From assembly GCA_019243195.1 (NCBI GenBank), contig JAFAUQ010000007.1, forward strand, positions 15 through 64,014: DNA of 64,000 bases. The letters are read 5' to 3'. Below are positions 13,742 through 60,831 of the stretch, piece after piece. Every line of letters begins with the position of its first letter. Position 1 is the stretch's first letter. The notes under the pieces were generated by a model. The model worked only from the letters and a program-made list of their open reading frames with translations. It was not told the DNA's origin and did no database searches. The position numbers and the translations under genes were made by a program. Source of the DNA: Hyphomicrobiales bacterium (GTDB lineage Bacteria > Pseudomonadota > Alphaproteobacteria > Rhizobiales > Xanthobacteraceae).

Positions 13742-13779
13742 GATCGGCCATTCGGCTGTCCAACTCGAAGGAGGATCAC

Positions 13780-14190
13780 GTGAGATTTTTTGTCGCCTTG
13801 GGCCTCATTTTCGCAATGTGCGCCATTGTTGCGCCAACCCCGCAATATTTTGGCGCCGTCCAAGCGCAAGGCGACACGCGTTCAAGCCTAACGTCATCGG
13901 CCGAACTTACTGGACTTCGCGCCGTTCTGGCTAAGCGAGTCGTCGTTGGCGGTAAGGAGGCAGTTGAGATCGTCTTTGACGAACCATCGGCCGAGCGGTT
14001 TCGTCAATTTGCCAATGGAGCTGTCGGACATCGTATTGTGTTCTTTGTGGACCAAAGGAAATTGGCGGCATTGCGTCTGGTCGAGCCCCTTGCCGGAGCG
14101 AAGGCCCAATTGACCGGGGATTTCGATCGCGTCGCATTGGAATCGATTCTCCGGTCACCTAACGCCGTTATCGACCTGAAGCTGGAGTGA
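13780..14190 (+). CDS. secreted hypothetical protein (SecDF P1-head-like pattern)
   Basis: GTG start preceded by GGAGGA; signal-like N-terminus (V)RFFVALGLIFAMCAIVA; the segment IVFFVDQRKLAALRLVEPLAGAKAQLTGDF resembles the SecD/F periplasmic head motif. Confidence 0.5.
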   Translation: MRFFVALGLIFAMCAIVAPTPQYFGAVQAQGDTRSSLTSSAELTGLRAVLAKRVVVGGKEAVEIVFDEPSAERFRQFANGAVGHRIVFFVDQRKLAALRLVEPLAGAKAQLTGDFDRVALESILRSPNAVIDLKLE

Positions 14191-14302
14191 CGTCAGGCTT
14201 TTCGGCGGTGATCTTTGACTGTCATTGCCGCCAAACTGCAACGGCTCGGTCTGCGGCTTTGCATGCCGCTCGGTACAGATTTGAGTTCGATCGTTGCCCA
14301 GA

Positions 14303-15454
14303 TTATTGGGTCGCGGCGGTACGGCGTCGGCGCACAGCCCGAAGCGCGTCCGTAAGATGACTGCGCGATCCCATCCCAACCAGAGCACACGTGATGCCCG
14401 GCGCTCGGCTGGCAAAGGCGATCGCTTTTTCCGCGTCAGTCAGCGCCTTGTCCGAGCCTCCGGACAGTACCCCGGGCATGGCGAGGCTCCCACCAGCCAA
14501 CGTGGCGGAAGTGAGCACGAGCATGTCCTCTGCATGGGCGGCCGCGAGCAACGTCGCTCGTCCGTTGCGACCGCGCTGCGATCGCAACGTGGCGATCTCG
14601 CGCCACATCACGTTGTATGGAGCCTGTACGGCGGCAAAATGGTTTTCGCGGCCGCCCACATCGGCAGCGATGCTGCGCAGTCGATGCAGACTGAGATGAG
14701 CCGGCGCATCGTTGGTACAACGAAACGCTTCCCAGGTCGAAATCCCGAATTGACCGATATGGCCGCTGGCGCAGGCCTGCTCCAGCGCGTCGAAAGCTGC
14801 ACTCATGCGGCGCTCGAATTGATATTTCGACAAGCTGGCCGTGTGAACCTCGGGGTTGTGCAGCAGATAAAGATCGATCGTCGCCAGTCCCAGGTTGCGG
14901 CGACTGCGGGCAATTTGATCCGCTATAAATGCCGGAGCTATGCAGTGACTGCCGAGCAAGATATCGCCCGGCTTCAGCCCGAGTTGCTGCTGGTCGATAC
15001 GCGGGTCGAAGCGGCGATTCGCACCGCGTCCTCGCGGAGCGCGCGGCAGGTACCCGCATTTAGAGACCACGAATATCTCGTCACGTGCGGCGCTGCCGTT
15101 GCGGATCGAGTTTCGTAACGCTGCGCCAATTGCACGTTCGCAGGTCTGCGCGCCATAGCTTATGGCCGTGTCGATGACGTTGATGCCTCCGATCAAAGCC
15201 ATCTGCGCGACCCCGCGGTAGCGCTGACCACCCGCATCGTCGGAACCAAGCGAAGTCCCGAGGCCAACTCGTGATAAGCGCAGCTCGCGAAACGTCACGA
15301 ATTCAGTCGGGTGTCGCGAAGCATAGCGCCGCGTACCGGAGACTGTCGCTCGGCCCTTGACCAATTCTTCGCGAGCGGTTGCATCTCGCACCGCGCCGGA
15401 AAATCTGCTCACCACGGCCCCCGCCAAGCGACGCACCGCTGTACGCAGCGCCAT
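14303..15454 (-). CDS. aldo/keto reductase
   Basis: AKR tetrad context (IDTAISYG, FVVSKCGY, LLHNPE); start set at MALRTAV. Confidence 0.85.
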   Translation of the reverse strand: MALRTAVRRLAGAVVSRFSGAVRDATAREELVKGRATVSGTRRYASRHPTEFVTFRELRLSRVGLGTSLGSDDAGGQRYRGVAQMALIGGINVIDTAISYGAQTCERAIGAALRNSIRNGSAARDEIFVVSKCGYLPRAPRGRGANRRFDPRIDQQQLGLKPGDILLGSHCIAPAFIADQIARSRRNLGLATIDLYLLHNPEVHTASLSKYQFERRMSAAFDALEQACASGHIGQFGISTWEAFRCTNDAPAHLSLHRLRSIAADVGGRENHFAAVQAPYNVMWREIATLRSQRGRNGRATLLAAAHAEDMLVLTSATLAGGSLAMPGVLSGGSDKALTDAEKAIAFASRAPGITCALVGMGSRSHLTDALRAVRRRRTAATQ

Positions 15455-15582
15455 TCTAGAGTAAGATGCGAGAGCGCCAAGCGTCGTCGGCGGGTAGCCG
15501 GTCCAGCCGGATGTGTTTGGCCTTCCACCGGGAGCGGTGAAGCTTGGGATGTGTCTTGCAGGGCATTCCAGCCGCAATTTGG

Positions 15583-16134
15583 ATGTTTGGCCCGAACTGG
15601 ATCAGGAGCGAGATCTCACTCTCCACGCGAGAGTGTGATCGCCTGATAGAGATTGTCTCCTCAGCCGAATCGGACAACAAGCATGGCCGCGGAGGCGGCC
15701 GGTTGCGCCGGCGACGCGCCGGAAGACGCCACAAGTTGACCCTGACTCCACAGTCCGCATGGATGTATGACGTTCTCTATCAGGTCGTGACGGACGCCAA
15801 TCGCGAACGCTTCCGCTTGCTGCTCAGCGGGATCGAGCGTGCGCCGGAATATGTCGAGCAGACGGCCGGCAGCCGGCCCCTGCGCTGGCGCCGCGATTAT
15901 CGTCACAGGGATATTCACGATTCGTGCAAGCTGACAGTCATCTGCCAGCTGAGCGATCCTTCCGCCTATCGAGGGGGCGACTTGCAGATATTCGATGACG
16001 GCATAGCAACGACGGTGCCCGCTCGCGGCGGTTTTTTTGTTCTGCTCGGGGCGCTGTTTTGGCGGGTTACGCCCGTCACTCGCGGCGTACGGCGCTCCCT
16101 GGTATCCTGGTTTGCGGGGCCGAGAATGAGGTGA
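15583..16134 (+). CDS. 2OG-Fe(II) oxygenase-fold protein (P4H/PKHD-like) lacking both His metal ligands
   Basis: Paralog of 24403-25104 (KLTVICQLSD..GGDLQIF..RVTPVTRGVRRSLVSWFAGPR). HxD is RRD and the distal His is Trp. Confidence 0.75.
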   Translation: MFGPNWIRSEISLSTRECDRLIEIVSSAESDNKHGRGGGRLRRRRAGRRHKLTLTPQSAWMYDVLYQVVTDANRERFRLLLSGIERAPEYVEQTAGSRPLRWRRDYRHRDIHDSCKLTVICQLSDPSAYRGGDLQIFDDGIATTVPARGGFFVLLGALFWRVTPVTRGVRRSLVSWFAGPRMR

Positions 16135-16139
16135 GCGCG

Positions 16140-17024
16140 ATGCGGGGTTCAGGTTTCCATTTGACCGCGGAGGAGACCCGGCTGTTCAAAGAGCAGGGCT
16201 ACATCGTCCGGCCAAACGTCCTGTCGGCCCGCGAGGTCGACCTTCTCCGACGCGCATTGACCCCGGCCGAGCTGCGGCAGGATCGCCAGCCGCTTGCACG
16301 TCACAAGATCGACGCGCTGTGGCGACAACTGGTCAGGCACGCCCGCGTAGCCGGTCCGGTCGGCGAATTGTTTGGGGGCGTTCCGTGCGTCGTGCAATCG
16401 ATGATCGCGTTCAAGCCGCGGGCCCGGCCAGGGCGGCAGGCGCGCAACGGGATCGCTCTGCATCAGGATCAGCAATACATCAAGACAAAGCCGGCCGGCG
16501 TGATCGGTTGCTGGGTTGCACTTGATCACACCGATGCCGGCAACGGCGGATTCATGGTCGTGCCCGCCAGCCATTGCAAGGGTCTGCTTACGAGCCGGAG
16601 CCGCGAGGGTCGGCACTTCCAAAGCCACTCGGTCGTGCAGCACATGCGCGACTGCGATGGCAAGGAGTGGCACGAAACCGCAGATACTTTTGAGATTCCC
16701 GGCGTCAACTGGGACAACGCGATAGCACTCAACATCCCAAAAGGCGGCGCGGTCTACTTTGACGGATTCCTCGTCCACGGATCGCGCTCGAACACGGCCG
16801 AGGACCGAGATCGGCTTGCTGTCGCGATTCACTTCGTCAAGCAAGGAACCTGGGTATACCGGGTTGACCTCAATGACGTCTTCCCGGTCCGTCGCACTGT
16901 CCGCGAATTGCGCCGCAGAGGGAACGGCGCCCCGCGGTCGGCCGGGCGTCATCGCCCCAATGATCGGGGGGAGCGGGCAAACAGGCGAAAGGCAGGGACG
17001 AGGCGCAGGTATTCGAGTTCGTAG
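16140..17024 (+). CDS. phytanoyl-CoA dioxygenase (PhyH) family Fe/2OG oxygenase
   Basis: GYIVRPNVL, LHQDQ (HxD), WVALDHTDAGNGGFMVVPASH, distal FLVHGSRSN; the 3' end overlaps the convergent gene. Confidence 0.85.
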   Translation: MRGSGFHLTAEETRLFKEQGYIVRPNVLSAREVDLLRRALTPAELRQDRQPLARHKIDALWRQLVRHARVAGPVGELFGGVPCVVQSMIAFKPRARPGRQARNGIALHQDQQYIKTKPAGVIGCWVALDHTDAGNGGFMVVPASHCKGLLTSRSREGRHFQSHSVVQHMRDCDGKEWHETADTFEIPGVNWDNAIALNIPKGGAVYFDGFLVHGSRSNTAEDRDRLAVAIHFVKQGTWVYRVDLNDVFPVRRTVRELRRRGNGAPRSAGRHRPNDRGERANRRKAGTRRRYSSS

Positions 17025-17503
17025 GGCGTATGGTTGGCATCATGGCGATGGCCCGGATCATAGTAATGACCGCTGGTGAAGCCATCGAAACCGAAAACGT
17101 CCACCTGATAGCCCAACTCTTGAAGCAGCAGAAGAAGCGCGAAGCCGGTGGAGGGGCGCGGGAAAAGATGCCGCAGCCGGCAGCGCGCAGCAAATATCAT
17201 ACGACCGCGAAAGTGAGGTTTGATATTCGTCGATTCCGGCGCGATGGACGTGAACGGGCTGAGCGGCCTCAAGCCGTTGCGGCGACGGCGCGGTAAGGGG
17301 GGATTGACCGTCGTGTCACCGAAGGTGCACCAATGGGTGACGCGTGACCCGCACCATTGTTCATAGCCGTCGATCTGAAAGGCATTGATGCGAATTACCG
17401 TAGCGTAGCGGTCGATCACTTCTCCAAAACGGAAGTGGAAGCGACCATTGCCGATGACCGCGATTGGGCGCGAGAGCCCTGCGAGAAAAAGTTCCGTGAA
17501 CAT
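16949..17503 (-). CDS. GT29 (sialyltransferase)-like / DUF115-like glycosyltransferase-fold protein, short
   Basis: IAVIGNG...IDRYATVIRINAF (L-motif-like), PSTGFALLLLLQELGYQVDVFGFDG (S-motif-like), HYYD (motif III-like). Confidence 0.55.
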   Translation of the reverse strand: MFTELFLAGLSRPIAVIGNGRFHFRFGEVIDRYATVIRINAFQIDGYEQWCGSRVTHWCTFGDTTVNPPLPRRRRNGLRPLSPFTSIAPESTNIKPHFRGRMIFAARCRLRHLFPRPSTGFALLLLLQELGYQVDVFGFDGFTSGHYYDPGHRHDANHTPYELEYLRLVPAFRLFARSPRSLGR

Positions 17504-17567: not shown

Positions 17568-18779
17568 TCACGGGGAACGCCGCGGTTTGGCGCACCGGGT
17601 CAGGTATCCGTAGCGCAGAAGATCGTCCACGAGCTTGAGCTTGCTAGCGTCGTCGGCCGCGACCGGTAGATCGCGCACGCAGAACTCCAATCCCCGCGCA
17701 ATGTGCCGAAATGCCGGTTCGAGAGCGCGGTCGCCCCTGATGCTCGTGCCGGGCAGGTACAGGATGACCGACGGGCCGCTCACCTCGACGGTGCTTCGCA
17801 CGCCATCCGACAGCTTCAGCCGCGATGCCGTGGTCAGAGGCGCGGCCGCGGCGATATCGTGAAGGCCGCTGTGGGGTGGAAGATCGCTTTCGCTGAGCAA
17901 ACGTCCGCCCACCTGTGCGACGGCGACCGCGGTTTTCGGGTCGTCCGGTAGCCGTCGCGCCAGGTCCCGGAGCAGCCGACGATCGCGGGCACGAAGCCGT
18001 CCGTGCGAGGCAAATCCGCGCGGCAGATTGCGCCGGAACGGAGCGCTCGCGGTGAGGATGCCGCTGAAGACGTCGCGCCAAGTCGCCGGATGTACGCTCA
18101 GCGTGAGGTGCAGCGACAGGTCTTCCGTCGTGCAGGCTTCGTGCGCGACACCGCGTGGAATATAGACGACATCGCCGGGCGACAGCACGAGTTCGTGCGC
18201 CGGCTTTCCCGTTTCCTCAGGGGTGAGCGATTGCACCGGCGGCTCCACCGGCGCCTCAACCGTGCGACGGTAGATGCGCCAATGCTTATGCCCGGCGAGC
18301 TGCAGAATAAATACGTCGTGCGCGTCGTAGTGGGCGGCAAACCCTTGCGCCGAGCGCGGCGTGAAATAGCCGTTCGCCGCTATCGGCTGAGAGAGAAGCA
18401 CGCCCCGCTGGGTAAATTCGGCTTCGAGTTCCCGGCACAACCGGCCGATTCCAGCGTGGCGTCTGTGCAGCTTGGTCAAAAGCAGACTGTGACCTTGGCC
18501 GACGGCGCCGTAGACCTCGGCGAGGTCGAGTGTCCCCTCGCTTGTCAGCGCTGATTTTGGCGGCCGTTGCGCACGGCCCTTTACCAAGCTGAACCAACCA
18601 TCCTCGGGTGCGGCGAGCGACGCCAGGAGAAAATCATAGTCGGCGACGGAGGGCAGATCGTCATAGAAGTTCGAATCATTACGCTCGACGATCAATACTC
18701 TGCGTCCCCAATATGCCTGGAAGAATCGATCGATGCTGCGCGGGGCAATGAGGCCAGCAATCCCCGCACGACGCGACAT
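17568..18779 (-). CDS. JmjC/cupin-4 family Fe/2OG oxygenase (ribosomal-oxygenase-like)
   Basis: FAAHYDAHDVFILQLAGHKHWRIY and GDVVYIPRGVAHEA; C-terminal helical/winged-helix-like extension; ATG 18779 (alternative GTG 18791 overlaps the upstream stop). Confidence 0.85.
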   Translation of the reverse strand: MSRRAGIAGLIAPRSIDRFFQAYWGRRVLIVERNDSNFYDDLPSVADYDFLLASLAAPEDGWFSLVKGRAQRPPKSALTSEGTLDLAEVYGAVGQGHSLLLTKLHRRHAGIGRLCRELEAEFTQRGVLLSQPIAANGYFTPRSAQGFAAHYDAHDVFILQLAGHKHWRIYRRTVEAPVEPPVQSLTPEETGKPAHELVLSPGDVVYIPRGVAHEACTTEDLSLHLTLSVHPATWRDVFSGILTASAPFRRNLPRGFASHGRLRARDRRLLRDLARRLPDDPKTAVAVAQVGGRLLSESDLPPHSGLHDIAAAAPLTTASRLKLSDGVRSTVEVSGPSVILYLPGTSIRGDRALEPAFRHIARGLEFCVRDLPVAADDASKLKLVDDLLRYGYLTRCAKPRRSP

Positions 18780-18783
18780 CTGC

Positions 18784-20691
18784 TTAGGCACGACGCCCCC
18801 ATTTCCGTGGTGCGCCGCCCGGCAGCCGTTCTCGAACAGGCAACGCCAAGACCTCTCCTGCCTCTTGAAACACCAGGCCCAGATTGTCGAGCTCGTCGAG
18901 GGCGTCTTGCAGCGTTAGCGCGTCGAGATCCGGGAATTGAGCAAGTAGGTGCCGCTTGCGCGTCGGCCGGTCGCAAGCGAGGAAGAGTTCGCGCGCGCGC
19001 CCGGAAAGATTGACCAATTGGGACTCGTCGCCGCGATGGTCCGCGACGATGACGCACGCACCGCCGTCCCGAAAGGTCAGCATTTGAGAAAACCCCTCTC
19101 GGCGGCGTTGTTCATGATGGGCACGCCAACACCCTATGGCCGCTTCCATCTCATCCCATGCGGCCCGGGTGTCATCGTCCATGCTGGATTCAAATGGTAC
19201 GATTTGACAGACAGGCGCCTCGCTCAGAGCTTTTGGCAGAAAGCAAAGCCGCGCGCGGTCGAGGCTCTCCGAATAGATGCCGTATCTCTCCGGCTCGGCA
19301 TACATTCGACTGCCGCGGTCGAGGTAGAACTCGGCGGATGATGGTGGTCGATAACCGTACAGAGTCGGGAGCAGCTTCGTGGATTCGCGGAGTTCGGCAG
19401 CAGCTACGCCAGGCACGCGCAGCATGACGTTATACTGGAACGGGATGCCGAACTCTTCGCACAGTTTAATGGAAGCGATGTTGTCGATCGTCCGCGTACC
19501 CTTCTCCATGCGCGACAGGATGCCGGTATGGAAAGCTTCCACGCCGAGCTGAAGCCGGCGGGTTCCGGCCGCCGCCAGCAGCGCGGCCGTTTCCTCGTCG
19601 AGATCGCATCGCGCCTCGCAAAACAAGGTCACGTCCGGCGCCTCGGTTGCCAGCCGCCGCAACAGCTCCTTGGCATAGGCCGGAGGCAGATAGGCGTCGA
19701 TGAAACTCAGCTCCAGCACCTGAGTGCGCGCGATACTGGCGCGCATTTCCTCCCAGAGGGCATCGAGGGACTTCTGGCGGGCATTCGGAGAATTGCGGTA
19801 TAGCCCGCAAAACGTGCAGCCCCGCAGGCGGCCGTCGCCACGCCGGTGCTCCCAGGCGCATCCGCGCGAGGCCTCCATGGGCAGCACCAGCCCGGAGCGG
19901 GGATAGCCCGCATTCCGCGCGGCGTCGTAAAACTCCCCCATATCCGGGGGACGAGCGGTGTCGATATTGGCCTGCACCGAGGTTGGGCTCCGGCCGATCC
20001 CACCGTTGCCGTCGCGAAAGCGCAGGTTCGGCAGATCGGCAAGAACGCCCGCGCCCCAGTGCGGCAACCGCGCCAGCTTCGCGAGCGTCGCTTCTCCCTC
20101 GCCGTCGACGATCGCGTCGACCCAAGGCACGGCCCGGAGCAAATTGGCGCCTGGCTCGCCAAGAACGCCCCCGCCGCCGAGAATGACGCGCAGGTGCGGT
20201 GCGCGCCGCTTGAACTCGCGTGCCAGATAGAGGGAAGCGCCCAGTTGCAGTGCGCCGACCGAGATGCCGGCGAGGCTGTACTTCGTCAGGTCCAGCGCCG
20301 CGATCGCCGCTTGCGTGGCCTGCTCAACCTCGCGCAACGCGCCGTTTCGGGCCCAGTGCGCAAGTTCCGTGTCGCCGGCCCGTGTCAGCACATCGGCGGT
20401 GCGGTCCAGGATCTCGTGCGCCTCGTCGGGCGAATAGAGGGCGCAATAGAGCGCTTCTCCCAGCTCCCAGCCGTTGGCGACGCGATCGTAGCGGTCAAAT
20501 CCCAGACGTACGGCGACGTCGAAATGCAAATGCACGCCGTCGGCGGGAATGCCGTTGGCAGCAAGATGCGACTTGAGCACGCCAATGGCCAGCGAGGGCC
20601 ATGTCGCTAACCGCCAGGGTGCCGAAACCAGCAGAACGGCGTCCGGGTGATGCCCTTGCTTACTGGCCGAGGTGGTCGGCAGAGCGCCCAT
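18784..20691 (-). CDS. B12-binding-domain radical SAM protein (class B type)
   Basis: N-terminal Rossmann-like B12-binding region (AVLLVSAPW...), radical SAM core SRGCAWEHRRGDGRLRGCTFCG (Cx13Cx2C), GVEAF..ILSRMEKG; ATG 20691 (alternative TTG 20706). Confidence 0.85.
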   Translation of the reverse strand: MGALPTTSASKQGHHPDAVLLVSAPWRLATWPSLAIGVLKSHLAANGIPADGVHLHFDVAVRLGFDRYDRVANGWELGEALYCALYSPDEAHEILDRTADVLTRAGDTELAHWARNGALREVEQATQAAIAALDLTKYSLAGISVGALQLGASLYLAREFKRRAPHLRVILGGGGVLGEPGANLLRAVPWVDAIVDGEGEATLAKLARLPHWGAGVLADLPNLRFRDGNGGIGRSPTSVQANIDTARPPDMGEFYDAARNAGYPRSGLVLPMEASRGCAWEHRRGDGRLRGCTFCGLYRNSPNARQKSLDALWEEMRASIARTQVLELSFIDAYLPPAYAKELLRRLATEAPDVTLFCEARCDLDEETAALLAAAGTRRLQLGVEAFHTGILSRMEKGTRTIDNIASIKLCEEFGIPFQYNVMLRVPGVAAAELRESTKLLPTLYGYRPPSSAEFYLDRGSRMYAEPERYGIYSESLDRARLCFLPKALSEAPVCQIVPFESSMDDDTRAAWDEMEAAIGCWRAHHEQRRREGFSQMLTFRDGGACVIVADHRGDESQLVNLSGRARELFLACDRPTRKRHLLAQFPDLDALTLQDALDELDNLGLVFQEAGEVLALPVRERLPGGAPRKWGRRA

Positions 20692-20718
20692 CCCCACGCA
20701 TGGCAAAGCCGCCGCGGA

Positions 20719-20985
20719 TCAGCAGCTCGGTCCGCCCGGATTGGAGATGCACCCATCGCTCGCCATCATGCGCGCGCGCTGGTCCTTCAACAGCCCGGTG
20801 CTAAGTCTCTCGACATTCACGCTGAGGCTGTTATCGCGGGCAACCTTGACCATGCTGCGCGGCAGTTTCACCTTCCTGCTCGATGCTGCCGGGTGGCGCA
20901 CATTGAGCAACACTTTGGCCTTTATGCCACCCCGACCGGCGGCCTTCTTTGCACGCTTCTTTGCAGTCTTCCTTGCGCTCTTCAC
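20719..20985 (-). CDS. candidate substrate/precursor peptide (88 aa from GTG; alternative 44 aa from ATG 20853)
   Basis: In-frame GTG preceded by AGGGAG with 6-nt spacing, 29 nt after the rSAM/SPASM stop and 13-28 nt before the B12-rSAM start. GC3 about 70-80%. Sequence (V)KSARKTAKKRAKKAAGRGGIKAKV...MVKVARDNSLSVNVERLSTGLLKDQRARMMASDGCISNPGGPSC. Confidence 0.45.
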   Translation of the reverse strand: MKSARKTAKKRAKKAAGRGGIKAKVLLNVRHPAASSRKVKLPRSMVKVARDNSLSVNVERLSTGLLKDQRARMMASDGCISNPGGPSC

Positions 20986-21013
20986 TTGTTGCTCCCTTGC
21001 TTCATGTTGTCGA

Positions 21014-22570
21014 TCATTCCCATTCTCCAGCCAACACGTTCGCTGGAACTGCACCTGCATCGCTTTCGCTGAACGTGCGGACAAGATTACGAAGGCGATG
21101 AAGCTTGTCGTCGGCGGTGCAATTCGTCACGCGTCGATTGCCCGTGGCCTTGCCGTTCTGAATTCGGCAAGTTCCGCCGCACAGATTGCGAATATCGCAT
21201 CGGTTACAGCCGAGATTATGATCGACGTCGTACTCTTGCGCCACGCCTTCGAGCATGCCGATCAGCGCCGCCATGGGTTGCTTGTCCACGTGCGTGATCG
21301 CCCCGTCCAAAAGATGGCAGGGATGAACAGATCCATCCGAGGCGACCACAATCTGCTCGGCGTAGCCGCAGCCCTTGGTCCTGCGGGCAATCCGCGGGCC
21401 CGCACTTCCCTCGATCTGCTCCATCATCTGCTCGACCACGGGGCGGGTGTCGTTGATGTCGAGGGAATCCTCGATGTCGTCGCCTCGTCCGTGGTGGGTG
21501 AGCCCGTAGCCGAGGCGGAATTCGACATTTCGCCCGTCCCAGCGCTTGGTGAAATCGATGAACCCGGCCTTCATTGCGGCCCAGTTGCGTTCCATTACGA
21601 CCATGCCGATGCGGACACGCACCCCCGCGGCGACCAGGAAGTCCACCGCCTCGACGGCCCGCCGGAAGCTGCCAGGTCCGCGGATCGGATCGTTTGTAGC
21701 AGCGTCGGGGCCGTCGATGCTTATCTGCACCTGATCGACATAGCTGCGAATGGCGTCGATGTGGCGCTGGATCAAGATGCCGTTCGAGAACAGCGTCACG
21801 TCGAGGCGGCGCGCATGGGCACGCTCAAGCAGACGGTCGCATCCCGGATAAACCAAGGCCTCCCCGCCGGTGAACAGGATTCGCTCGCCGCCAGCGTCGG
21901 CGAAATCGTCGATAACCTTCAGCCACCTCTCGACCGACATCTGTCCTTTGGTTGAAACATGCGGACTCGAATCGGCATAGCAATGCACACAACTCAGATT
22001 GCATCGTTGCGTTAGATGAAGGCGCATGAAACGCCGCGGCTGCGGCTTCCAGACATCGGTATACCCTTCGATACCGCGGACGAAACCCGCCGTCGCGAGC
22101 CGGCCGATCAACGCATGGACCTGAGCAGCAACCCGGCGTCTCGTTCTTGCGCCGCGATCGCCGGCGATTAGCGCCGCGATCGCGTCAGGGGGCGTGCCGT
22201 CGCGCAGGCGCAGGAACAGCGCGTGTTCCTGCTTCGACATCGTGATGGCTATCCCTTCCTCAACACCGATCCAAAGGTGCGCGCCGTCCACAAGCCGATG
22301 CGAAAGCGTTTCCACCAGCGGCAGCGGCGTGCCGAGCGGCACCCGATACTTTCCCTCGCCGGTCTGCACGGCTGGCGGCGCGTCGCGCATTGATTGCGGC
22401 GCGCGCCACAGTTCGTGCAGCGTCGTGCGATCCAACTCGCGCTTGCCTTCGATGATATGGGCGGCGAGGGCATCCGGGCGGGGCAGTTCATACGAACTCG
22501 CCGGCGCCAGGCGACTTGGCGGAGGGGCAATAACCGATGCTGAGGATCGCCCGCGTGCCAGTTCAGGCAT
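21014..22570 (-). CDS. radical SAM/SPASM-domain peptide-modifying enzyme with N-terminal PqqD/RRE-like domain
   Basis: CNLSCVHC (Cx3Cx2C). C-terminal SPASM pattern GSVHPC...CNRCDIRNLCGGTC...C. N-terminal SKQEHALFLRLRDGTPPDAIAALIAG...ALIGRLATAGFV resembles PqqD-type RRE. ATG 22570 has AAGGTG upstream (alternative TTG 22591). Confidence 0.9.
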   Translation of the reverse strand: MPELARGRSSASVIAPPPSRLAPASSYELPRPDALAAHIIEGKRELDRTTLHELWRAPQSMRDAPPAVQTGEGKYRVPLGTPLPLVETLSHRLVDGAHLWIGVEEGIAITMSKQEHALFLRLRDGTPPDAIAALIAGDRGARTRRRVAAQVHALIGRLATAGFVRGIEGYTDVWKPQPRRFMRLHLTQRCNLSCVHCYADSSPHVSTKGQMSVERWLKVIDDFADAGGERILFTGGEALVYPGCDRLLERAHARRLDVTLFSNGILIQRHIDAIRSYVDQVQISIDGPDAATNDPIRGPGSFRRAVEAVDFLVAAGVRVRIGMVVMERNWAAMKAGFIDFTKRWDGRNVEFRLGYGLTHHGRGDDIEDSLDINDTRPVVEQMMEQIEGSAGPRIARRTKGCGYAEQIVVASDGSVHPCHLLDGAITHVDKQPMAALIGMLEGVAQEYDVDHNLGCNRCDIRNLCGGTCRIQNGKATGNRRVTNCTADDKLHRLRNLVRTFSESDAGAVPANVLAGEWE

Positions 22571-22757
22571 GACCCGCACCTTTGAAGACAACCGTTAGTC
22601 GTCGCACCAAATATTATAAGTAGCATCCCATGGTTGAAATGGGCTGTCAATCCGAATATCGTAATCGGTGCGCGCCCGCGGCGGAGCCTCTCGGCGCTCT
22701 GGCCGGTGCCGGAAGGCCGTCGACACTTGCGTTCGGACGCGCGTGCGGAGCGGGACC
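22571..22757. promoter_or_regulatory. divergent intergenic control region of the cassette
   Basis: 187-bp gap between divergently transcribed rSAM operons, containing the only AT-rich stretch locally (caccaaatattataagtagcatcc). Confidence 0.4.
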
Positions 22758-24440
22758 ATGCTTGTTTGCGCACCATTCCATTCGGTCGCCAACCCACCCG
22801 TCGGCATGGCGTACCTCGCCTCTTATCTGGGGGAACGCGGCATCGACTGCCGGCCGCGTGACATCAACATAGAGGCGCGGGAATTTGTCCGCGCGCTTCC
22901 CGGGCCGGACGGTAAGCCGGGCGCATTTGCCGCGATCGCAGATGATCTGTTTGCCTTGGCGCGCAGGACGTATCTCGGCGAGGCCGCGGCCTGGTCGTGG
23001 TTCGATTCGGGCGGCCTCGAAGCGGTCGCTGCGCGTGCCCTGAATCATCCGGTCAAGGCGATCCGCGACTTCTGGAGGGGCGCGGAGATAGAGCGTCTGG
23101 TCTCTGACGGCGCGCTGCGCCACGTGAGCGCCGCTCTGCACGATTGGCTTCTGCGCCAAGCCGAGGCGATTGCAGGCGCTGCGGCCGGTTGGGTCGGCTT
23201 TTCGACCACCATAACGAATTTCGCGCCGACCTTGTTCCTCGCGCGACGCATGCGCGAACTCGATCCGGATTTGCTGCTCATCATCGGCGGACCGCACATC
23301 TCGGCTCGCAACGCGGCCCAGATCCTGCGCGCGTGCCGCGTATTCGACTTTGCCGTGCCGACACCGGCGTTCGCGGCGCTTGAATCTTTGCTCGCCGACA
23401 TCGGTCGCGCACGGCACGGGCCCTTGCCGCCCGGCGTCTGGCGGGCGCGACGCGAGGCCACCTCCGGCAATGGTTCGTCCGCCGCCTCCGCCGTTGACAT
23501 CGAGTGTGGCAGCGGACAGGTCCGCATGGATCTCAACGCACTGCCGCCGGCGGATTGGACCTGGGCACGCCTCTCCCGTTACGACTCCGGCTTTTTGATG
23601 AAGAACACATCCGGCGATTTCACCAAATGGTATCCTACCATCCCGGTGCAGACATCGCGCGGATGCTCTTACAGCCGGTGCAAGTTCTGCCACAACGTCG
23701 TCGACTATCCAAAGTACAGCATGCAGCGTCCCGAACGCGTCGCCCAGGAGGTCAGGCATCAGATCGCCACGGTCGGCAGCCGCGGCTTTTTCTTCACCGA
23801 CGACGAGTTCAGCGGCTCGCGCAGGCGCACGGTCGAGATTGGCCGCGAGTTGCGGGCGCTGGATGAGGAGGTTCGATACTCCTGCTGGGTCCGTCTTGAC
23901 AAAATCGATGCCGAATTACTCGACGATATGTACGCCGCGGGAGCGCGCCAGCTGTTCATCGGAGTCGAGGCCGTAGATGACGACATTCTGCTGCTCATGG
24001 ACAAGGGCTACGGCTCACGCGAAGCGCTGCGCAACCTGAAGCTTCTGTACCAGTTCGCAGACCGTCATCCGGATCTGGTCTACGTCTTCAATCTCATAGT
24101 GGATTATCCCGGCGAGACGCTCGCATCCGTCCGCAGAACCCTCGCCGTCGTGGCTGAGAACCCCGAGCTGTTCGTCGGCAAGGTCGCCGCCTGCTGCGTG
24201 TTCCATCTGTACGAGGGGACGCCGGCTTTCGAGCAACTGGGAGACGGCGCCACCGCGTGCATCGATCCGCTCCTGCCGGCCGATGTCACGGTCCCGGACC
24301 TACGCTATCTATATCCGCCGGTCGGTGTCGAAACCCGTCCCGACCGTATGGAGATTTGGTCGGCGATTGCGGAATTCGTGCGCTTCAAGGAACCCCACGA
24401 TCATGGTCACTCGCGCAACACGGTCGCGATCTACGACTGA
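22758..24440 (+). CDS. B12-binding-domain radical SAM protein (class B type), second copy
   Basis: GGAG 8 nt upstream of the ATG; N-terminal MLVCAPFHSVANPPVGMAYLASYL; core SRGCSYSRCKFCHN (Cx4Cx2C); GVEAVDDDILLLMDKG. Confidence 0.85.
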   Translation: MLVCAPFHSVANPPVGMAYLASYLGERGIDCRPRDINIEAREFVRALPGPDGKPGAFAAIADDLFALARRTYLGEAAAWSWFDSGGLEAVAARALNHPVKAIRDFWRGAEIERLVSDGALRHVSAALHDWLLRQAEAIAGAAAGWVGFSTTITNFAPTLFLARRMRELDPDLLLIIGGPHISARNAAQILRACRVFDFAVPTPAFAALESLLADIGRARHGPLPPGVWRARREATSGNGSSAASAVDIECGSGQVRMDLNALPPADWTWARLSRYDSGFLMKNTSGDFTKWYPTIPVQTSRGCSYSRCKFCHNVVDYPKYSMQRPERVAQEVRHQIATVGSRGFFFTDDEFSGSRRRTVEIGRELRALDEEVRYSCWVRLDKIDAELLDDMYAAGARQLFIGVEAVDDDILLLMDKGYGSREALRNLKLLYQFADRHPDLVYVFNLIVDYPGETLASVRRTLAVVAENPELFVGKVAACCVFHLYEGTPAFEQLGDGATACIDPLLPADVTVPDLRYLYPPVGVETRPDRMEIWSAIAEFVRFKEPHDHGHSRNTVAIYD

Positions 24441-25104
24441 AGCCGTCGCGCCGCCGGGCTCGCGCGGGCTGATCCGCTGGGTTGCGAAGGCGGGAAGCCG
24501 CGGCGGACGGTTTCGCATTCCAATCCGGACGGTTGGTGGCCCGCGCGACGGATATTTTCATCTTGACTGGGTGAAGTGTGCGACACGTCTATCGTCCAGG
24601 CAATGCGATGAGATCATCAGAACAGGGGAAGGGTTCGCGCCGGAGGCGCCGACGGTCGTTGGCGAGAACATTCTTTCTGCGCACCGGGTCGGACACGTAC
24701 GTCTGCTTCCCGACGTCGCCCAGACCGAGCCGATTTATCGTCTGCTGTGGGACGTAGCCGCCGACGCGGCAAATCGGCACTACGGGCTGGCCATCACCGG
24801 CATTACCCGCATGCCGCATTACGTCGAGTATCACGCCGGCTATGGGCACTTCCACTGGCACAACGATTACAGTCACGAGTCGCAGGAATCGCCTCGCAAG
24901 TTGACCGTCATCGTGCAACTCAGTGACGGCGACGACTACGACGGCGGCGACCTGCAAGTCTTCAATGTTGCGCCTGAAGCGATGCCGCGCGAGCGGGGCA
25001 CCATCATCTGCCTGCCGTCATTCGTCACGCACCGCGTAACGCCGGTAAGCGCCGGCGTGCGACGGATCGTGGTTGCCTGGATCGCGGGCCCGAGGCTGGT
25101 ATGA
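24403..25104 (+). CDS. 2OG-Fe(II) oxygenase (P4H/PKHD-like), ligands intact
   Basis: HWHNDY (HxD), THRVTPV distal His, GVRRIVVAW Arg. Start uncertain: ATG 24403 overlaps the upstream gene; alternative GTG 24571. Confidence 0.8.
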   Translation: MVTRATRSRSTTEAVAPPGSRGLIRWVAKAGSRGGRFRIPIRTVGGPRDGYFHLDWVKCATRLSSRQCDEIIRTGEGFAPEAPTVVGENILSAHRVGHVRLLPDVAQTEPIYRLLWDVAADAANRHYGLAITGITRMPHYVEYHAGYGHFHWHNDYSHESQESPRKLTVIVQLSDGDDYDGGDLQVFNVAPEAMPRERGTIICLPSFVTHRVTPVSAGVRRIVVAWIAGPRLV

Positions 25105-25889
25105 GCGTCGCGGCGATAGCGCGCGCGTCCGGCGAGACGAAGTCGAGCCGACCAAGGTACGATGTAGCCCGCATTATAAGCACGATCCGCGAGCGCGGCT
25201 TCTGCGTGGTTCCCAACCTGATCCCGGGTCGCCGCTGCGACGCCCTCGGTGCGGCGCTGCGGCGTCTGCTCCGGGAGGAAGAGCAGGTCAACAGGCGGCC
25301 AAACGGCCATCAGCGCGTTCTCCATCTGGCGGCGAAGCATGCTCGTTTTGTCGACCTGGTGACGCATCCGCTGGTGCTGTCGGTGTGGCGCGGTTATCTG
25401 GGCGACGACATGCTATGCTCGTCGCTGACTGCCAACGCGCTTTGGCCGGGCTGCAGCGAGCAGTACTGGCATGTCGACCACCCGTATTGGACGATGGCGC
25501 AGCCCTATCCAGTCGACCTGCCGCTCGCAACGCAGACGATCTGGATGTTGGACGATTTCACCGTCGAGAACGGGGCGACGGCTGGAATCGCGGGGAGCCA
25601 TCGTCGGCCGCATCTTCCGAGCATCGGTGCAGCATGGACCGAAGAGGGCACGATTTTTACCGGTCGCCGCGGCAGCGCTGTTCTGATGGATGGAGCGCTC
25701 TGGCATACGTCGCGCCCGAATCTTACCGAGGCGATGCGCTGCGGAGTTCTGGTTAAGTACATTCGCAGCTTCTGCGTTACACAAGAGGACATGCGCCTGC
25801 AGCTCGCAGCGATCAAGCGCCCGTCGAAAACGGTCGAGCAACTTTTCGGCGCCCATCAGTATGTGCCCACCCGCAGCTTTCCTTATTAG
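25101..25889 (+). CDS. phytanoyl-CoA dioxygenase (PhyH) family Fe/2OG oxygenase (PhnY/TmpA-like position)
   Basis: ATGA overlap with the upstream stop; GFCVVPNLI, YWHVDHP (HxD), ENGATAGIAGSH, ALWHTSRPN. Confidence 0.85.
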   Translation: MSVAAIARASGETKSSRPRYDVARIISTIRERGFCVVPNLIPGRRCDALGAALRRLLREEEQVNRRPNGHQRVLHLAAKHARFVDLVTHPLVLSVWRGYLGDDMLCSSLTANALWPGCSEQYWHVDHPYWTMAQPYPVDLPLATQTIWMLDDFTVENGATAGIAGSHRRPHLPSIGAAWTEEGTIFTGRRGSAVLMDGALWHTSRPNLTEAMRCGVLVKYIRSFCVTQEDMRLQLAAIKRPSKTVEQLFGAHQYVPTRSFPY

Positions 25890-26506
25890 TGAGAGCGACG
25901 ATGCGGACCGGTTCAAAAAATGCGGGGGTACGGACGAGACGAAAGGTGCGCCGTGCCATCATTCAAAGCACGCCCGAAATGCCGAGTCTGGTGCTCAAAT
26001 GGCTGCGCCGTCTGCGCCGCGACGTAAATGGTCGACGGGTCGACCAGCTCACACACAGTTTGCAAACCGCGACGCTCGCCTTTCAGGCCGGCGCCGCCGA
26101 CGACATCATCGTCGCGGCGCTCTGTCACGACATCGGCAAGGCCGTATCCTGGGTCGACCACGGCAGGCGCAGCGCGGATATTATCAAGCCCTATGTAACG
26201 TCCGCAGCGTACTGGGTCGTTGCTGCCCACGACGACTTCCTTGCTGTCTACAACATCAACCGGAGCGGGCTCGACCCCTACGCGTTTCGCGAGAAGCACG
26301 CTCGGAGACGCTGGTACAAGACCGCGGTCGTGTTCGCCGATGAATGGGATTCGATGGCGTACGATCCAACGATCAAACCGTTGTCATTGCGCTATTTTGA
26401 ACCCCTGATCCGCCGAGTGTTTGCGGCTACCCGCAGGCGAGCGGAACGGGATACGGGACTGGCGCTCATCCAGGAGCTGGAGAGCGTCATACCGGCAGAT
26501 CGCTGA
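25889..26506 (+). CDS. HD-domain protein, PhnZ/TmpB/MIOX-like (putative mixed-valent diiron oxygenase)
   Basis: QLTHSLQTATLAFQAGAADDIIVAALCHDIGK then DHG.., AAHDD.., ADEWD gives an H..HD..H..H..D pattern; GTG 25889 overlaps the PhyH stop (alternative ATG 25901). Confidence 0.75.
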   Translation: MRATMRTGSKNAGVRTRRKVRRAIIQSTPEMPSLVLKWLRRLRRDVNGRRVDQLTHSLQTATLAFQAGAADDIIVAALCHDIGKAVSWVDHGRRSADIIKPYVTSAAYWVVAAHDDFLAVYNINRSGLDPYAFREKHARRRWYKTAVVFADEWDSMAYDPTIKPLSLRYFEPLIRRVFAATRRRAERDTGLALIQELESVIPADR

Positions 26507-30398: not shown

Positions 30399-33107
30399 TC
30401 ACGTCGCCGGCGCCGCCGCGGCGGCGTGCCGGGGAAACAGCAGGCGCTGGTAGAGCCAGCCGATGCCGACCAGCACCAGGCCGAGGCCGATGAAGGAGAG
30501 GGCGCGGAACGCCCCTTCGAGCACCGCGAGGTCGAACAGAAAAACCTTGCCGATCGTGATGAGCACGACCGCCGCCGAGGCGAGGCGCGCCGGCTGTGAG
30601 CGCAGGAAAACGCCCGCCAGGAGCAGCAGCACGCCGAAGGCGAGCCAGACGGCTGAATAGGTGTATTGCTCGGCGTTGCTGGTCGGGCCGCTTGTGAGCA
30701 CCGGGCCGTGATAAAGCGTCGTGACCTCGAGCGAGAGATAAGCCAGTGCGAGGCCGACCGCGACAACGGCGGCAACGACCCGATAGGCATAGGGACGCGT
30801 TTCGCGCGCGATGAGGGCGAGAATCGCCGCGAGCACGGCGGGCAGGCCGTAGCCGAGCAGGATGAGGTTCACGAACGGGCCGCCCACCGGCCGGCCGGTC
30901 ACGAGCGGATTTTCGAATCCCCACAGGCCGAACACGATGCCGCCGAGCGCCAGCGCGGCGAGGATGAGCGCGCCCGCGTCGTGAATGACGCTGCCGGTGC
31001 GCGCGCGAACGCGCTCGAGGCCGATGGCCATGGCGAGGAAGGCCGAGACCTGGAGCGCCACTTCGCTTAAGCCCCCGGTCGAACGATAAACATCGCCGTC
31101 GTTCATGATGAAACGAATTTCGAGGAAGACGAGAAGCACGGTGAACAGGATCGCACCCGACTCGACCATCCGGCACGGCATGTCGTCGGCGCGGCGGCGC
31201 AACAGATGGCCGGCGAGCCAGAACCCCGCCGCCGGCACGCCGTAACCGTAGAGCAGCCAATTGAAAATCGGTGTCGTGCCGACATCGTCGCCGACGATGC
31301 GCGGTTCCCAGGCGATGCGCGCAAGCACCAGCAGAACGCCCGCCGCCGCGGCCCACCGCAGCAAGGGGAGCGGACGCTTGAGCGAAACCCAGGCGATACC
31401 GGGCACCATCAGCGCGAGCCCGACGGTGAGCCAGCCTTTTTCCAGCGAGAACGTGAGCGCCAGCGCCAGCGCCGCGATGGTGCCGGCGGCGAAAATCGCG
31501 GCGGCTGAAGGAAGTCCCGGCCGGCGCGGGCGCCGGTCGAGGATTTCCACCGCCCACGCTCCCGCGCCGGCTATCAGCAGCGCGATGACCGCGAACGGCA
31601 CCGAGCGGTCGAACTGGGCGATGCGATAATAGAGCGCGATCAGGATCCCGAGCGGCGCAACCACGCCGGAGGCCGCCCACAGGATCGGTGGGACCGGTTG
31701 CTCCGAGCGGCCTTGCGCCAGGAAAGCGGCGCCGGCGAACAGCACCGCAAGAATGCCGCCGAACACGAGGTGCGAACCGAACGCGGCGCGCGCCGGTTCC
31801 GGCACGGCTCCGGCCATGGGCCCGGCGGGCGCAATCAGGTGTTCGATGCGCAGATCGACCGACCAGGCGGCAAGCACCAGCACGACCAGCACGGCGCCCA
31901 CCGGCACCGTTGCCACGGCCGCATCGGTGCGCCACGCGATCGCCAGCGTGCCCGCCGTGAGCAGCGCGAAGGCGATGAGCGCCACGCCGTCGTGATCGGT
32001 GGCGAACACCAGCATGGCGGCGGCAAACAAATAGGCAGCGAGCGCGCCCGAGGAAATGCCGTCGATGCGGCCGGGTGCCGCGCGCGGGCCATAGAGAAAG
32101 CCGGAGACGATCAGCACGGCGGCGAGCACGAACCCGGCGACGGCGTGAAACGCGTGCGCAAGGAGCACGGCGCTGGCCGTCTCCTCGATGCCCGGGAACA
32201 TCCATAGCGTCCCGACCCCCACCGCGGCGATGGCAAGCCAGCGCCACAGGCGCATGCGCGCGAGCGCGAAGCTCGCGGCGCTCACGACCGCGAGATAAAG
32301 GTAGAGCGCCCAGTAATTCGGCTGGTTCGTCGAAACGAGAAGCGGCGCGACGTAGGCGCCGACGAGCCCCAGCCCGGCGAGCGCCGGCCCATGCAGCAGC
32401 GCCGCCGCGAGCGTGAGCAGCGCCACGATTCCGAGCAGCACGAACGCGACGGCCGGCCCGAGGAATCCGTAGAGCGCGTAGGCGGCGTACACCGTCGCAT
32501 AGGCCACCGCGGTTCCGGCCGCGGTGAGAATGCTCGGGATATGCGCGGTGGGCAGAGGAACGAGGCTCGAAAGATTCTCTTTGCGGCGCGCCCATTCGCC
32601 GGCGACGAGCAGCCCCGCGGCCAGAAGCGCGCCGCAGAAAATGCGCATGCCGGGCCCGAACCAGCCCTGCTCGATCGAATATTGCACGAGGAAATAGCCG
32701 CCGAGCACCAGCGCCAATCCGCCGGCCCATACGGCCCATTGCGTGCCGAACCGCTCCTCGAAACTTGGGCGCGGGGCGGCGGGCGCCGGCGGCACAGGCG
32801 TCGGGGGCGGCTCGGCCGCGGGCGGCGGTTCGGTCGCGAACGGCGGTGCGGCGGACGGCGGTGCCGCGGCCGGCGGTGCCGGCTCGACTACCGGGGGCGC
32901 GGGTTCGGGCTGCGGCGGGGAGGGCGTCCGGGCTGCGGCCGGGGGCAGTGGCGCCCCGCCTCGCGCCAGGCGGTCTTCAATGTCGCGCAGGCGGCGCTCC
33001 AGCGCCTCGACGCGCGAGCGTGCGCCGGCCGCGGTCGCGAGCGCCAGGATCGCCATCAACGGAATGGCGAGCGCGATGAGAACGGCGAGCGTGATCAGCC
33101 CATCCAC
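30399..33107 (-). CDS. DUF2339-type large polytopic membrane protein
   Basis: N-terminal TM, then a coiled-coil (RVEALERRLRDIEDRLA), a Pro/Ala-rich spacer and about 25 TM segments. Confidence 0.8.
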   Translation of the reverse strand: MDGLITLAVLIALAIPLMAILALATAAGARSRVEALERRLRDIEDRLARGGAPLPPAAARTPSPPQPEPAPPVVEPAPPAAAPPSAAPPFATEPPPAAEPPPTPVPPAPAAPRPSFEERFGTQWAVWAGGLALVLGGYFLVQYSIEQGWFGPGMRIFCGALLAAGLLVAGEWARRKENLSSLVPLPTAHIPSILTAAGTAVAYATVYAAYALYGFLGPAVAFVLLGIVALLTLAAALLHGPALAGLGLVGAYVAPLLVSTNQPNYWALYLYLAVVSAASFALARMRLWRWLAIAAVGVGTLWMFPGIEETASAVLLAHAFHAVAGFVLAAVLIVSGFLYGPRAAPGRIDGISSGALAAYLFAAAMLVFATDHDGVALIAFALLTAGTLAIAWRTDAAVATVPVGAVLVVLVLAAWSVDLRIEHLIAPAGPMAGAVPEPARAAFGSHLVFGGILAVLFAGAAFLAQGRSEQPVPPILWAASGVVAPLGILIALYYRIAQFDRSVPFAVIALLIAGAGAWAVEILDRRPRRPGLPSAAAIFAAGTIAALALALTFSLEKGWLTVGLALMVPGIAWVSLKRPLPLLRWAAAAGVLLVLARIAWEPRIVGDDVGTTPIFNWLLYGYGVPAAGFWLAGHLLRRRADDMPCRMVESGAILFTVLLVFLEIRFIMNDGDVYRSTGGLSEVALQVSAFLAMAIGLERVRARTGSVIHDAGALILAALALGGIVFGLWGFENPLVTGRPVGGPFVNLILLGYGLPAVLAAILALIARETRPYAYRVVAAVVAVGLALAYLSLEVTTLYHGPVLTSGPTSNAEQYTYSAVWLAFGVLLLLAGVFLRSQPARLASAAVVLITIGKVFLFDLAVLEGAFRALSFIGLGLVLVGIGWLYQRLLFPRHAAAAAPAT

Positions 33108-60628: not shown

Positions 60629-60831
60629 TCGATCCTCCGCCAGCCGACCAAAGGTGGGCTGTAGAGCCAACGCGAACAAGCCCGGACTTTTGGCGATGCC
60701 GCGCTTGCCCCCGTGCCGCCCCAATCAGGACCTAAGGCTCCTTTAACCAGAAATAGTCTGAGTGGGGGCTATGCTGGTCTGCGCTGCGCGTGGGGACGCG
60801 CGGCGCTCGGGGCGGGAATGGGGGATGGATC

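Follow-up and report, generated by a model that had tools for sequence, protein, structure and literature searches.

In a 64,000-nucleotide stretch of DNA from a Hyphomicrobiales bacterium (contig JAFAUQ010000007.1, positions 15 to 64,014 of the forward strand; hereafter the window), a gene for a PhyH-family Fe(II)/2-oxoglutarate (Fe/2OG) oxygenase, PhyH-1, is directly followed by one for an HD-domain protein, and the pair closes an uncharacterised divergent cluster for a peptide that is made by the ribosome and modified after translation (RiPP), with three radical S-adenosylmethionine (SAM) enzymes and four or five Fe/2OG-type oxygenases. Judged by its sequence and predicted structure, the HD protein is a canonical six-ligand PF01966 protein with a PhnZ/TmpB-like fold. 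We assign it with considerable confidence to the RiPP pathway, and put at roughly one in two the probability that it tailors the peptide oxidatively at a residue already hydroxylated. In this reading, a PhnZ/TmpB-like diiron HD oxygenase would have been taken up into a RiPP tailoring operon as its last gene.

Metal ligands and fold of the HD protein

The HD open reading frame (ORF) matched the Pfam HD family (PF01966) with a score over the gathering threshold (E 1.8e-6) and the gene before it matched Pfam PhyH (E 3.6e-23), confirming a gene pair that an earlier reading made from the letters alone (the sequence-only reading) had described. That reading had also pointed to QLTHSLQTATLAFQAGAADDIIVAALCHDIGK, DHG, AAHDD and ADEWD in the HD protein as the ligand pattern of diiron HD oxygenases, and all of these motifs are present in the translation. 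A search of 5.8 billion proteins returned 751 relatives, and in 44 aligned ones H56, H80, D81, H91, H114, D151 and D154 are invariant, likewise Q53, Q59 and K84 (residue numbers are those of the 205-aa ORF at 25889-26506). The predicted metal ligands are H56, H80, D81, H91, H114 and D154, in register with PhnZ and in the H...HD...H...H...D arrangement that defines HD oxygenases (PMC8177086); they include the second-site ligands H91, H114 and D154, whose absence the sequence-only reading would have taken as the mark of an ordinary phosphohydrolase.

Compared with solved structures, the HD-family profile matched PhnZ (E 1.5e-13) and TmpB (E 1.3e-8), the next match being at 0.036, and in the hidden Markov model (HMM) profile alignment H56/H80/D81/H91/H114 fell on PhnZ H34/H58/D59/H80/H104, with the segment from the HD dyad to the third His 11 residues shorter than in PhnZ. 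As reference for the sixth ligand we used two plasmid-encoded proteins with the PGAP name 'phosphonate degradation HD-domain oxygenase', both over the cut-off of the NCBIfam PhnZ model TIGR03276. An hhalign comparison of the HD family with these two PhnZ-type proteins (probability 97%, E 3.7e-11, 142 columns) aligned D154 with the W-D ligand of the pair and D151 with an Arg that is invariant in them, D154 corresponding to PhnZ D161.

An AlphaFold2 model of the HD protein (predicted local distance difference test score 88) is all helical, and its ten best Foldseek matches in the PDB were all PhnZ or TmpB (TM-score 0.57-0.71); the first HD hydrolases had E > 0.1, and the E value for MIOX was 0.27 (TM-score 0.42-0.52). 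The proposed resemblance to PhnZ and TmpB thus held, these being the only good structural matches of the model. Moreover, PhnZ and the window HD both have Gln three positions ahead of the first His, and not the Arg that HD phosphohydrolases are said to conserve (PMC8177086). The HD protein is nearer to the known oxygenases than to HD hydrolases; from these comparisons we infer that it is likely to be an oxygenase, not a hydrolase, with a site that is probably two-metal and diiron.

An HD gene at the end of a conserved RiPP operon

The PhyH-1 stop codon TAG (25887-25889) overlaps a GTG at 25889, which is the TAGTG junction noted earlier. This GTG is one among several candidate starts of the HD gene: ATG 25901 is likelier because the N-terminus that it opens, MRTGSKNA..., is conserved in the homologue P0005, and the start used by the gene caller, GTG 25946, gives a 186-aa product (P0001). 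The spacing of the two genes is -1 to +12 nt depending on the start, or 57 nt with the gene caller's start, and they are tightly linked whichever start applies. The same adjacency was seen again in independent contigs (L001, L002/L003, L004, L012/L013 and L015), so that the juxtaposition is not by chance; across these and the window the gap is 0-83 nt, and HD is always the final gene of the RiPP operon. An apparent lack of HD in the long-read metagenome contigs L012/L013 was rejected: frame disruptions there (L012 8047-10520) have split the 2OG gene and left uncalled the HD gene that is present at L012 9858-10385, so the gene calls under-report the cassette in these contigs. When the operon was scanned for promoters and terminators, sites were no more numerous than in shuffled sequence.

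The sequence-only reading had placed the pair in a peptide-modification operon, and this operon indeed proved to be a RiPP cluster that is conserved and whose precursor can be identified. The precursor has the C-terminal tail ...ASDGCISNPGGPSC, small genes homologous to it were called in L001, L002, L012 and L081, and the tail GC[IV]SNPGGP[SG]C is kept across the cluster family (13 precursors compared). Homologues of PhyH-1 (45-72% identity) mark this wider family in Burkholderia thailandensis, Actinomadura terrae, an Allosphingosinicella metagenome-assembled genome (MAG) and many metagenomes. Most of the clusters encode a SPASM enzyme, a TIGR03975-type B12-binding radical SAM enzyme, JmjC, 2OG-FeII_Oxy_3 and PhyH-1; those not of the window type are without HD, and several have YcaO-TfuA, some also ThiS and a carbamoyltransferase.

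PhyH-1 and the 2OG-FeII_Oxy_3 gene directly upstream of it are core genes, present in all nine HD-less lineages. The role of PhyH-1 is therefore independent of HD, which removes it as a dedicated partner and with it the dedicated PhyH-HD couple that had been proposed; the HD gene joined the 3' end of a pre-existing operon in one sub-clade. A second, clade-specific PhyH-family oxygenase of the cluster, PhyH-2, is an equally good candidate for a hydroxylase that would prepare the HD substrate.

Across the loci L010, L014, L020, L021, L030, L079, L081-L084 and the window, two architectures can be told apart, a YcaO-TfuA type with a Met/Thr core, and a type with an Asp core that has an extra B12 radical SAM enzyme, PhyH-2, a GT29-like gene and, in some, HD. 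The nearest PhyH-1 relative (72%) lies in L081 (3496-3771, 8908-9892), which has an Asp-core precursor and neither HD nor the TIGR03975-type B12 radical SAM gene, so both of these steps are optional within the clade; L081 keeps PhyH-2, the GT29-like gene and the second B12 radical SAM gene. Many PhyH-1 homologues in marine and other metagenome contigs (L022-L073; 41-48% identity) come with no other cluster genes and constitute a separate subfamily.

The core Asp and a proposed reaction

In the window, the precursor core reads ..A-S-D-G-C-I-S-N-P-G-G-P-S-C, where Asp is the only side-chain acid and is followed by Gly. The residue ahead of the invariant Gly-Cys is Asp (SDG) in the HD-positive lineages (window, L001/12/13 and L002). 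Seven HD-less lineages (L010/11, L082, L083/84, L014, L020, L021/62 and L030) have Met or Thr there, and two further HD-less ones, L081 and L079, have Asp. Among the loci sampled, HD was thus present in three of five Asp-core lineages and in none of seven Met/Thr-core lineages (one-sided Fisher p = 0.045, not corrected for phylogeny). This co-occurrence is suggestive, a hint as to the substrate and not proof of it.

A published precedent in RiPPs is provided by SmaO, an Fe/2OG enzyme, and SmaX, which convert a peptide Asp to beta-hydroxy-Asp (Hya) and then to aminomalonate (Kim et al., JACS 2025, PMC12186529). SmaO requires Gly after the substrate Asp, and SmaX is a DUF6817 (PF20680) protein with His/His/Asn ligands and one iron, without the HD Asp (PMC12186529). 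Both systems have an Fe/2OG gene adjoining an HD-superfamily gene in a RiPP cluster and an Asp-Gly in the precursor (in the window, PhyH-1 next to HD and a core A-S-D-G-C...), and the logic proposed for the window pair is that of SmaO/SmaX, hydroxylation beside a carboxylate followed by oxidative cleavage. The SmaX-like context supports an enzyme that may work like SmaX, which is a different matter from family membership: SmaX is a mono-iron His/His/Asn DUF6817 protein whereas the window HD is a canonical six-ligand PF01966 protein, and the window cluster, with radical SAM/B12 enzymes and a GCISNPGGPxC core, differs in RiPP class from the graspetide or GG-leader types of SmaO/SmaX. Membership of the HD protein in the SmaX/DUF6817 family was considered and rejected, as there was no PF20680 match, hhalign against the DUF6817 protein of L004 gave a probability of 1%, and the HD dyad and second-site His are present. 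The earlier suggestion of a hydroxylate-then-cleave sequence on a peptide thereby gains a precedent, but as a concept it is not new in principle. In L004 (1950-7153), the 2OG-PhyH-HD cassette is followed on the same strand by genes for DUF6065, a 123-aa ORF, a radical SAM enzyme, DUF6817 (SmaX-family) and a methyltransferase, so that the canonical HD and DUF6817 enzyme types lie at most 4 kb apart there.

PhnZ and TmpB cut the bond between the hydroxylated carbon and the acid group after hydroxylation by an Fe/2OG enzyme (PMC8177086, PMC10574752). By analogy, an Fe(II)/2OG oxygenase of the cluster (PhyH-1 or PhyH-2) would hydroxylate a precursor side-chain carbon beside an acid group; the HD metal site would then bind the resulting alpha-hydroxy-acid motif and carry out an O2-driven four-electron oxidative C-C cleavage. 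The likeliest substrate would be beta-hydroxy-Asp at the SDG site, where a cut between C-beta and C-gamma would leave an aminomalonyl residue, as with SmaO/SmaX. We infer a peptide substrate and, tentatively and at somewhat less than even odds, this Asp site.

Several points weigh against this proposal. The Asp-core lineages L081 and L079 do without HD, so the HD step is dispensable and the Asp is not there solely for HD; the HD-positive clusters are all closely related, and common ancestry alone may explain why Asp and HD go together. The role of PhyH-1 does not depend on HD, none of the hydroxylases can be linked to the Asp, and the nearest HD homologues outside the cassette are solitary genes without an assigned function. 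As to the metal site, D154 is preferred over D151 as sixth ligand on one profile alignment, and the C-terminal half of the HD protein alone gave no meaningful match to PhnZ in the PDB. Finally, dinuclear HD hydrolases such as YqeK carry the same six ligands (PMC8177086), so that the six ligands by themselves are no proof of oxygenase chemistry.

Alternatively, HD could be a RiPP oxygenase acting elsewhere, on beta-hydroxy-Asn, hydroxy-Pro of SNPGGP, Ser or the C-terminal Cys, or by other C-C or backbone cleavage. PhyH-1, 2OG-FeII_Oxy_3 and JmjC occur in all clusters and so must act on the invariant GCISNPGGPxC, HD comes directly after PhyH-1, and two Asp-core clusters lack HD. We nevertheless consider a residue other than Asp unlikely, because hydroxylase-paired HD oxygenases need a hydroxyl beside a metal-chelating acid (PMC8177086, PMC12186529), which only the Asp or the C-terminus offers, and because the confinement of HD to Asp-core clusters would then be a coincidence.

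HD relatives outside the cassette

The nearest homologues of the HD protein (56-72% identity) share the cassette (L001, L002/L003, L004, L012/L013, L015), and cassette HD proteins form one clade apart from solitary relatives. More distant homologues (45-51% identity) are solitary genes in unrelated neighbourhoods, and no PhyH or phosphonate genes adjoined them in the neighbourhoods examined. These solitary proteins of ~180-190 aa make up a large family (L005-L008 and the P0007-P0120 series), mostly from actinobacterial-type MAGs, with the same six invariant ligands, HDIGK and FADEWDQ motifs and neighbourhoods that are not conserved. A 50%-identity library contained 407 clusters of the HD family at E<=1e-10, and 1064 when the limit was relaxed to E<=1e-3. 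The source annotation of the solitary family is only 'predicted HD phosphohydrolase', and its members score far under the NCBIfam family cut-offs. By sequence, the window HD properly belongs to this COG4341-type family (36-51% identity), the two having in common the invariant residues, HDIGK and F-x-[DE]-x-[WY]-D. The cassette clade differs from its solitary members at positions 49, 118-122, 155 and 158 and lacks or replaces their N-terminal FTRMD..STAE.W segment; unlike the window HD, COG4341-type members are solitary or fused and lie outside RiPP clusters.

Among the fused relatives, P0316, P0361 and P0363 (625-701 aa) and P0388 (508 aa), at 36-38% identity and 83-90 bits, join the HD domain to a TauD/gamma-butyrobetaine-hydroxylase-like Fe/2OG domain or to a fatty-acid-hydroxylase domain, and the HD family is thereby tied to hydroxylases. 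Their Fe/2OG domains reached 200-221 bits against the TmpA model, whose cut-off is 400. Their HD domains, at 28-38 bits, are not of the PhnZ/TmpB family. Some of the fusion N-termini resemble organelle-targeting sequences. The position aligned with PhnZ E27, the contact to the substrate amine (PMC8177086), is Arg in the cassette HD clade and Phe in solitary relatives; this Arg and the hydroxylase fusions fit a hydroxylase-coupled, non-phosphonate oxygenase. A scan of a genome collection with the HD protein returned one distant locus (32% identity), the cassette being absent from the species representatives searched.

The family annotation speaks for an alternative, in which the HD protein would be no oxygenase at all but a metal-dependent hydrolase (phosphatase, phosphodiesterase or similar) that takes a phosphate or nucleotidyl group off a pathway intermediate or cofactor, or that serves in regulation or immunity. 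Most HD-domain proteins are indeed phosphohydrolases, and the dinuclear YqeK has the extra two His ligands (PMC8177086). Yet the only significant sequence and structure matches of the HD protein were PhnZ and TmpB, Gln stands in place of the Arg typical of phosphohydrolases (PMC8177086), no kinase or nucleotidyltransferase gene was recognised in the cluster in Pfam and NCBIfam scans, and family members are fused to Fe/2OG dioxygenases. We therefore think a hydrolase improbable.

There is also a small chance that the HD protein is an oxygenase of MIOX-like function, acting not on an amino-acid side chain but, as MIOX does on a polyol, on a small molecule or on an appended sugar-like group that might be attached by the GT29-like protein. 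The HD dyad is followed by HDIGK in the window protein, which we take to resemble HDLGK of MIOX and not HDLGH of PhnZ; some relatives gave weak Pfam MIOX matches, the GT29-like gene is confined to the Asp-core clade, and the closest relatives are encoded by solitary genes and presumably act on small molecules. Against this, MIOX is a much poorer structural match than PhnZ or TmpB, the GT29 match is partial, and L081 has the GT29-like gene without HD.

Comparison with phosphonate catabolic modules

It is highly improbable that PhyH-1 and HD are a true phosphonate catabolic module of the PhnY/PhnZ type merely lying beside a RiPP cluster: the two-gene logic is alike and the HD protein gave weak N-terminal matches to the TIGR03276, TmpB and PhnZ1 models, but these reached 34.9, 32.9 and 26.9 bits, respectively, over residues 45-87 only, set against equivalog cut-offs of 214.6, 300 and 300 and against control PhnZ-type proteins that scored 218 and 227 bits over their full length. 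One control PhnZ-type gene adjoins phnCDE. In Pfam scans of 46 ORFs across the window there was no phosphoenolpyruvate mutase (pepM), phnCDE, phnWX or similar, in agreement with the earlier claim that phosphonate genes are absent, and the same scans gave housekeeping genes (glyS, PPDK, nadA, dxs and others). The likeness to PhnY*/PhnZ and TmpA/TmpB comprises the fold, the six ligands in register, the QLxHxLQ and HD motifs and the pairing with an Fe/2OG enzyme. The window HD differs from PhnZ and TmpB in its low identity (~20%), in the missing motifs described below and in having a PhyH partner that is not dedicated to it. Furthermore, HD-less clusters have PhyH-1 among their core RiPP genes, and HD is always last in its RiPP operon.

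The YxxE loop (PhnZ Y24/E27), which is the substrate loop of PhnZ and TmpB (PMC8177086), is missing, the aligned positions being V46 and R49 in the window HD and the family consensus x-D-G-F. Compared with the two PhnZ-type proteins, the window HD is also without the motifs AKRYL, LSPASQ and R-x-W-D, the last replaced by D-E-W-D so that an invariant Asp stands in place of the Arg. On these grounds and on its scores below cut-off, orthology to PhnZ/TmpB was rejected. The possibility left by the sequence-only reading that the pair is a bona fide 2-aminoethylphosphonate module also found outside the cassette finds no support in these scores, nor in the non-cassette relatives, which have no phosphonate neighbours.

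In one respect the known systems had been misdescribed: their hydroxylase was said to be PhyH-type, and TmpA is not, the NCBIfam TmpA model matching the same region as Pfam TauD. TmpA was not among the 58 PDB matches of PhyH-1, whose sole NCBIfam match was ectoine hydroxylase at 34 bits (cut-off 336); an NCBIfam PhnY* model was not confirmed.

Place among HD oxygenases and RiPP families

Characterised HD oxygenases, as listed in the 2025 SmaX paper, are the diiron enzymes MIOX, PhnZ and TmpB and the atypical mono-iron SmaX (PMC12186529). Searches of the accessible literature found no further characterised ones and no report of a six-ligand HD enzyme in RiPPs. The window protein may, at less than even odds, be the first six-ligand diiron-type HD oxygenase on a ribosomal peptide, a C-C cleaving one (taking beta-hydroxy-Asp to aminomalonate, or acting on another residue) in an uncharacterised RiPP class. 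Its family of ~400 clusters (50% identity, E <= 1e-10), TauD/GBBH-HD fusions included, would then be a fourth, non-phosphonate branch with an acidic residue for the PhnZ Arg. Whereas the logic of an Fe/2OG hydroxylase followed by HD-type oxidative cleavage in a RiPP is already published, the enzyme type differs, being a six-ligand PhnZ-like HD. If active on the peptide, it would mean that the diiron HD scaffold was recruited to peptide natural-product tailoring independently of SmaX, and it would offer, with a 14-residue core and an enzyme of ~200 aa, a tractable entry into a large family annotated as 'HD phosphohydrolase'.

Our analysis also brings to notice a RiPP family of B. thailandensis and actinomycetes that is unstudied and unusually rich in oxygenases and radical SAM enzymes. 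A fused TfuA-YcaO/radical SAM cluster of B. thailandensis has been mentioned as uncharacterised (PMC8120280), and our literature searches on this RiPP family found nothing past that 2021 remark. The B. thailandensis cluster has a homologous precursor (..SSMGCISNPGGPGC) and shares the SPASM radical SAM enzyme, B12 radical SAM enzyme, JmjC, 2OG-FeII_Oxy_3 and PhyH-1 at 54-64%. It differs from the window cluster in having YcaO-TfuA, ThiS, a carbamoyltransferase and Met in place of the Asp, and in being without HD, PhyH-2, the GT29-like gene and the second B12 radical SAM enzyme, all of which are present in the window.

Other genes of the cluster and its surroundings

The genes of the window cluster are listed in the table below. 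PhyH-1 overlaps the upstream 2OG-FeII_Oxy_3 gene by 4 nt (ATGA), and the HxD...H triad and 2OG-binding Arg are invariant in its family (H124, D126, H202, R213); the solved structures closest to it are SptF, KanJ, DhiD, FtmOx1 and EctD. The start of the 2OG-FeII_Oxy_3 gene is likely ATG 24403, judged by the 233-aa genes of L001 and L013, and in all clusters this gene lies directly upstream of PhyH-1. The B12-binding radical SAM enzyme 'b' has NCBIfam matches to TIGR03975 and PhpK-like models under the cut-off and was found by tblastn in the Asp-core clade and in L079 (48% identity). Copies of the SPASM-type maturase, 42-79% identical, occur in all related clusters; its best NCBIfam matches, all below cut-off, are to sactipeptide, ranthipeptide and PqqE-type maturases. 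PhyH-2 and the GT29-like gene are specific to the Asp-core clade, with homologues only in L012/L013 and L081 (54-56% for PhyH-2).

Table. Genes of the RiPP cluster in the window, with coordinates in the 64,000-nucleotide stretch
Feature	Coordinates	Strand	Basis and remarks
HD-domain protein (focus gene)	25889..26506	+	205-aa ORF, Pfam HD; likely start ATG 25901, gene caller start GTG 25946
PhyH-1, PhyH-family Fe(II)/2OG oxygenase, core gene	25101..25889	+	262 aa, Pfam PhyH E 3.6e-23
2OG-FeII_Oxy_3 (PKHD/prolyl-hydroxylase-like) oxygenase	24403..25104	+	Pfam PF13640 6e-13; ORF opens 24283
B12-binding radical SAM 'b', putative C-methyltransferase	22758..24440	+	Pfam Radical_SAM and B12-binding; first plus-strand operon gene
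Radical SAM/SPASM-type peptide maturase, core gene	21014..22591	-	Pfam Radical_SAM and Fer4_12
Precursor peptide, ~88 aa, ending ...DQRARMMASDGCISNPGGPSC	20719..20985	-	ORF translation
B12-binding radical SAM 'a', RiPP-maturation C-methyltransferase family	18784..20706	-	NCBIfam TIGR03975 299.7 bits (cut-off 281.85)
JmjC_2 (cupin) Fe/2OG-type oxygenase, core gene	17568..18791	-	Pfam PF08007 7e-30; homologues in all related clusters
GT29-like small protein	16949..17503	-	Pfam PF00777 (glycosyltransferase family 29) 9e-11, part of model only
PhyH-2, second PhyH-family oxygenase	16059..17024	+	Pfam PhyH 3.7e-22; 22% identity to PhyH-1

Long antisense ORFs overlapping genes with homologues, 20672-21955 (+) and 25690-26343 (+) among them, were treated as high-GC artefacts. 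The window has a G+C content of 65%, and third-position G+C is 0.72-0.77 in cluster genes compared with 0.79-0.88 in flanking genes. In the stretch adjoining the cluster (12000-17500) G+C falls to 0.58-0.62, against 0.65 overall; it carries a Toprim-like ORF (12311-13741) and an aldo-keto reductase gene (14303-15577, minus strand). A phage-type integrase gene lies downstream of HD in L002. The G+C dip, the lower third-position G+C of the cluster and this integrase suggest that the cluster is a horizontally acquired island. Other genes of the window, which taken together suggest an alphaproteobacterial host, are two tandem DUF2336 genes (39021-41212, minus strand), a DUF2339 gene (30399-33107) and a DUF1194 gene (59762-60724).

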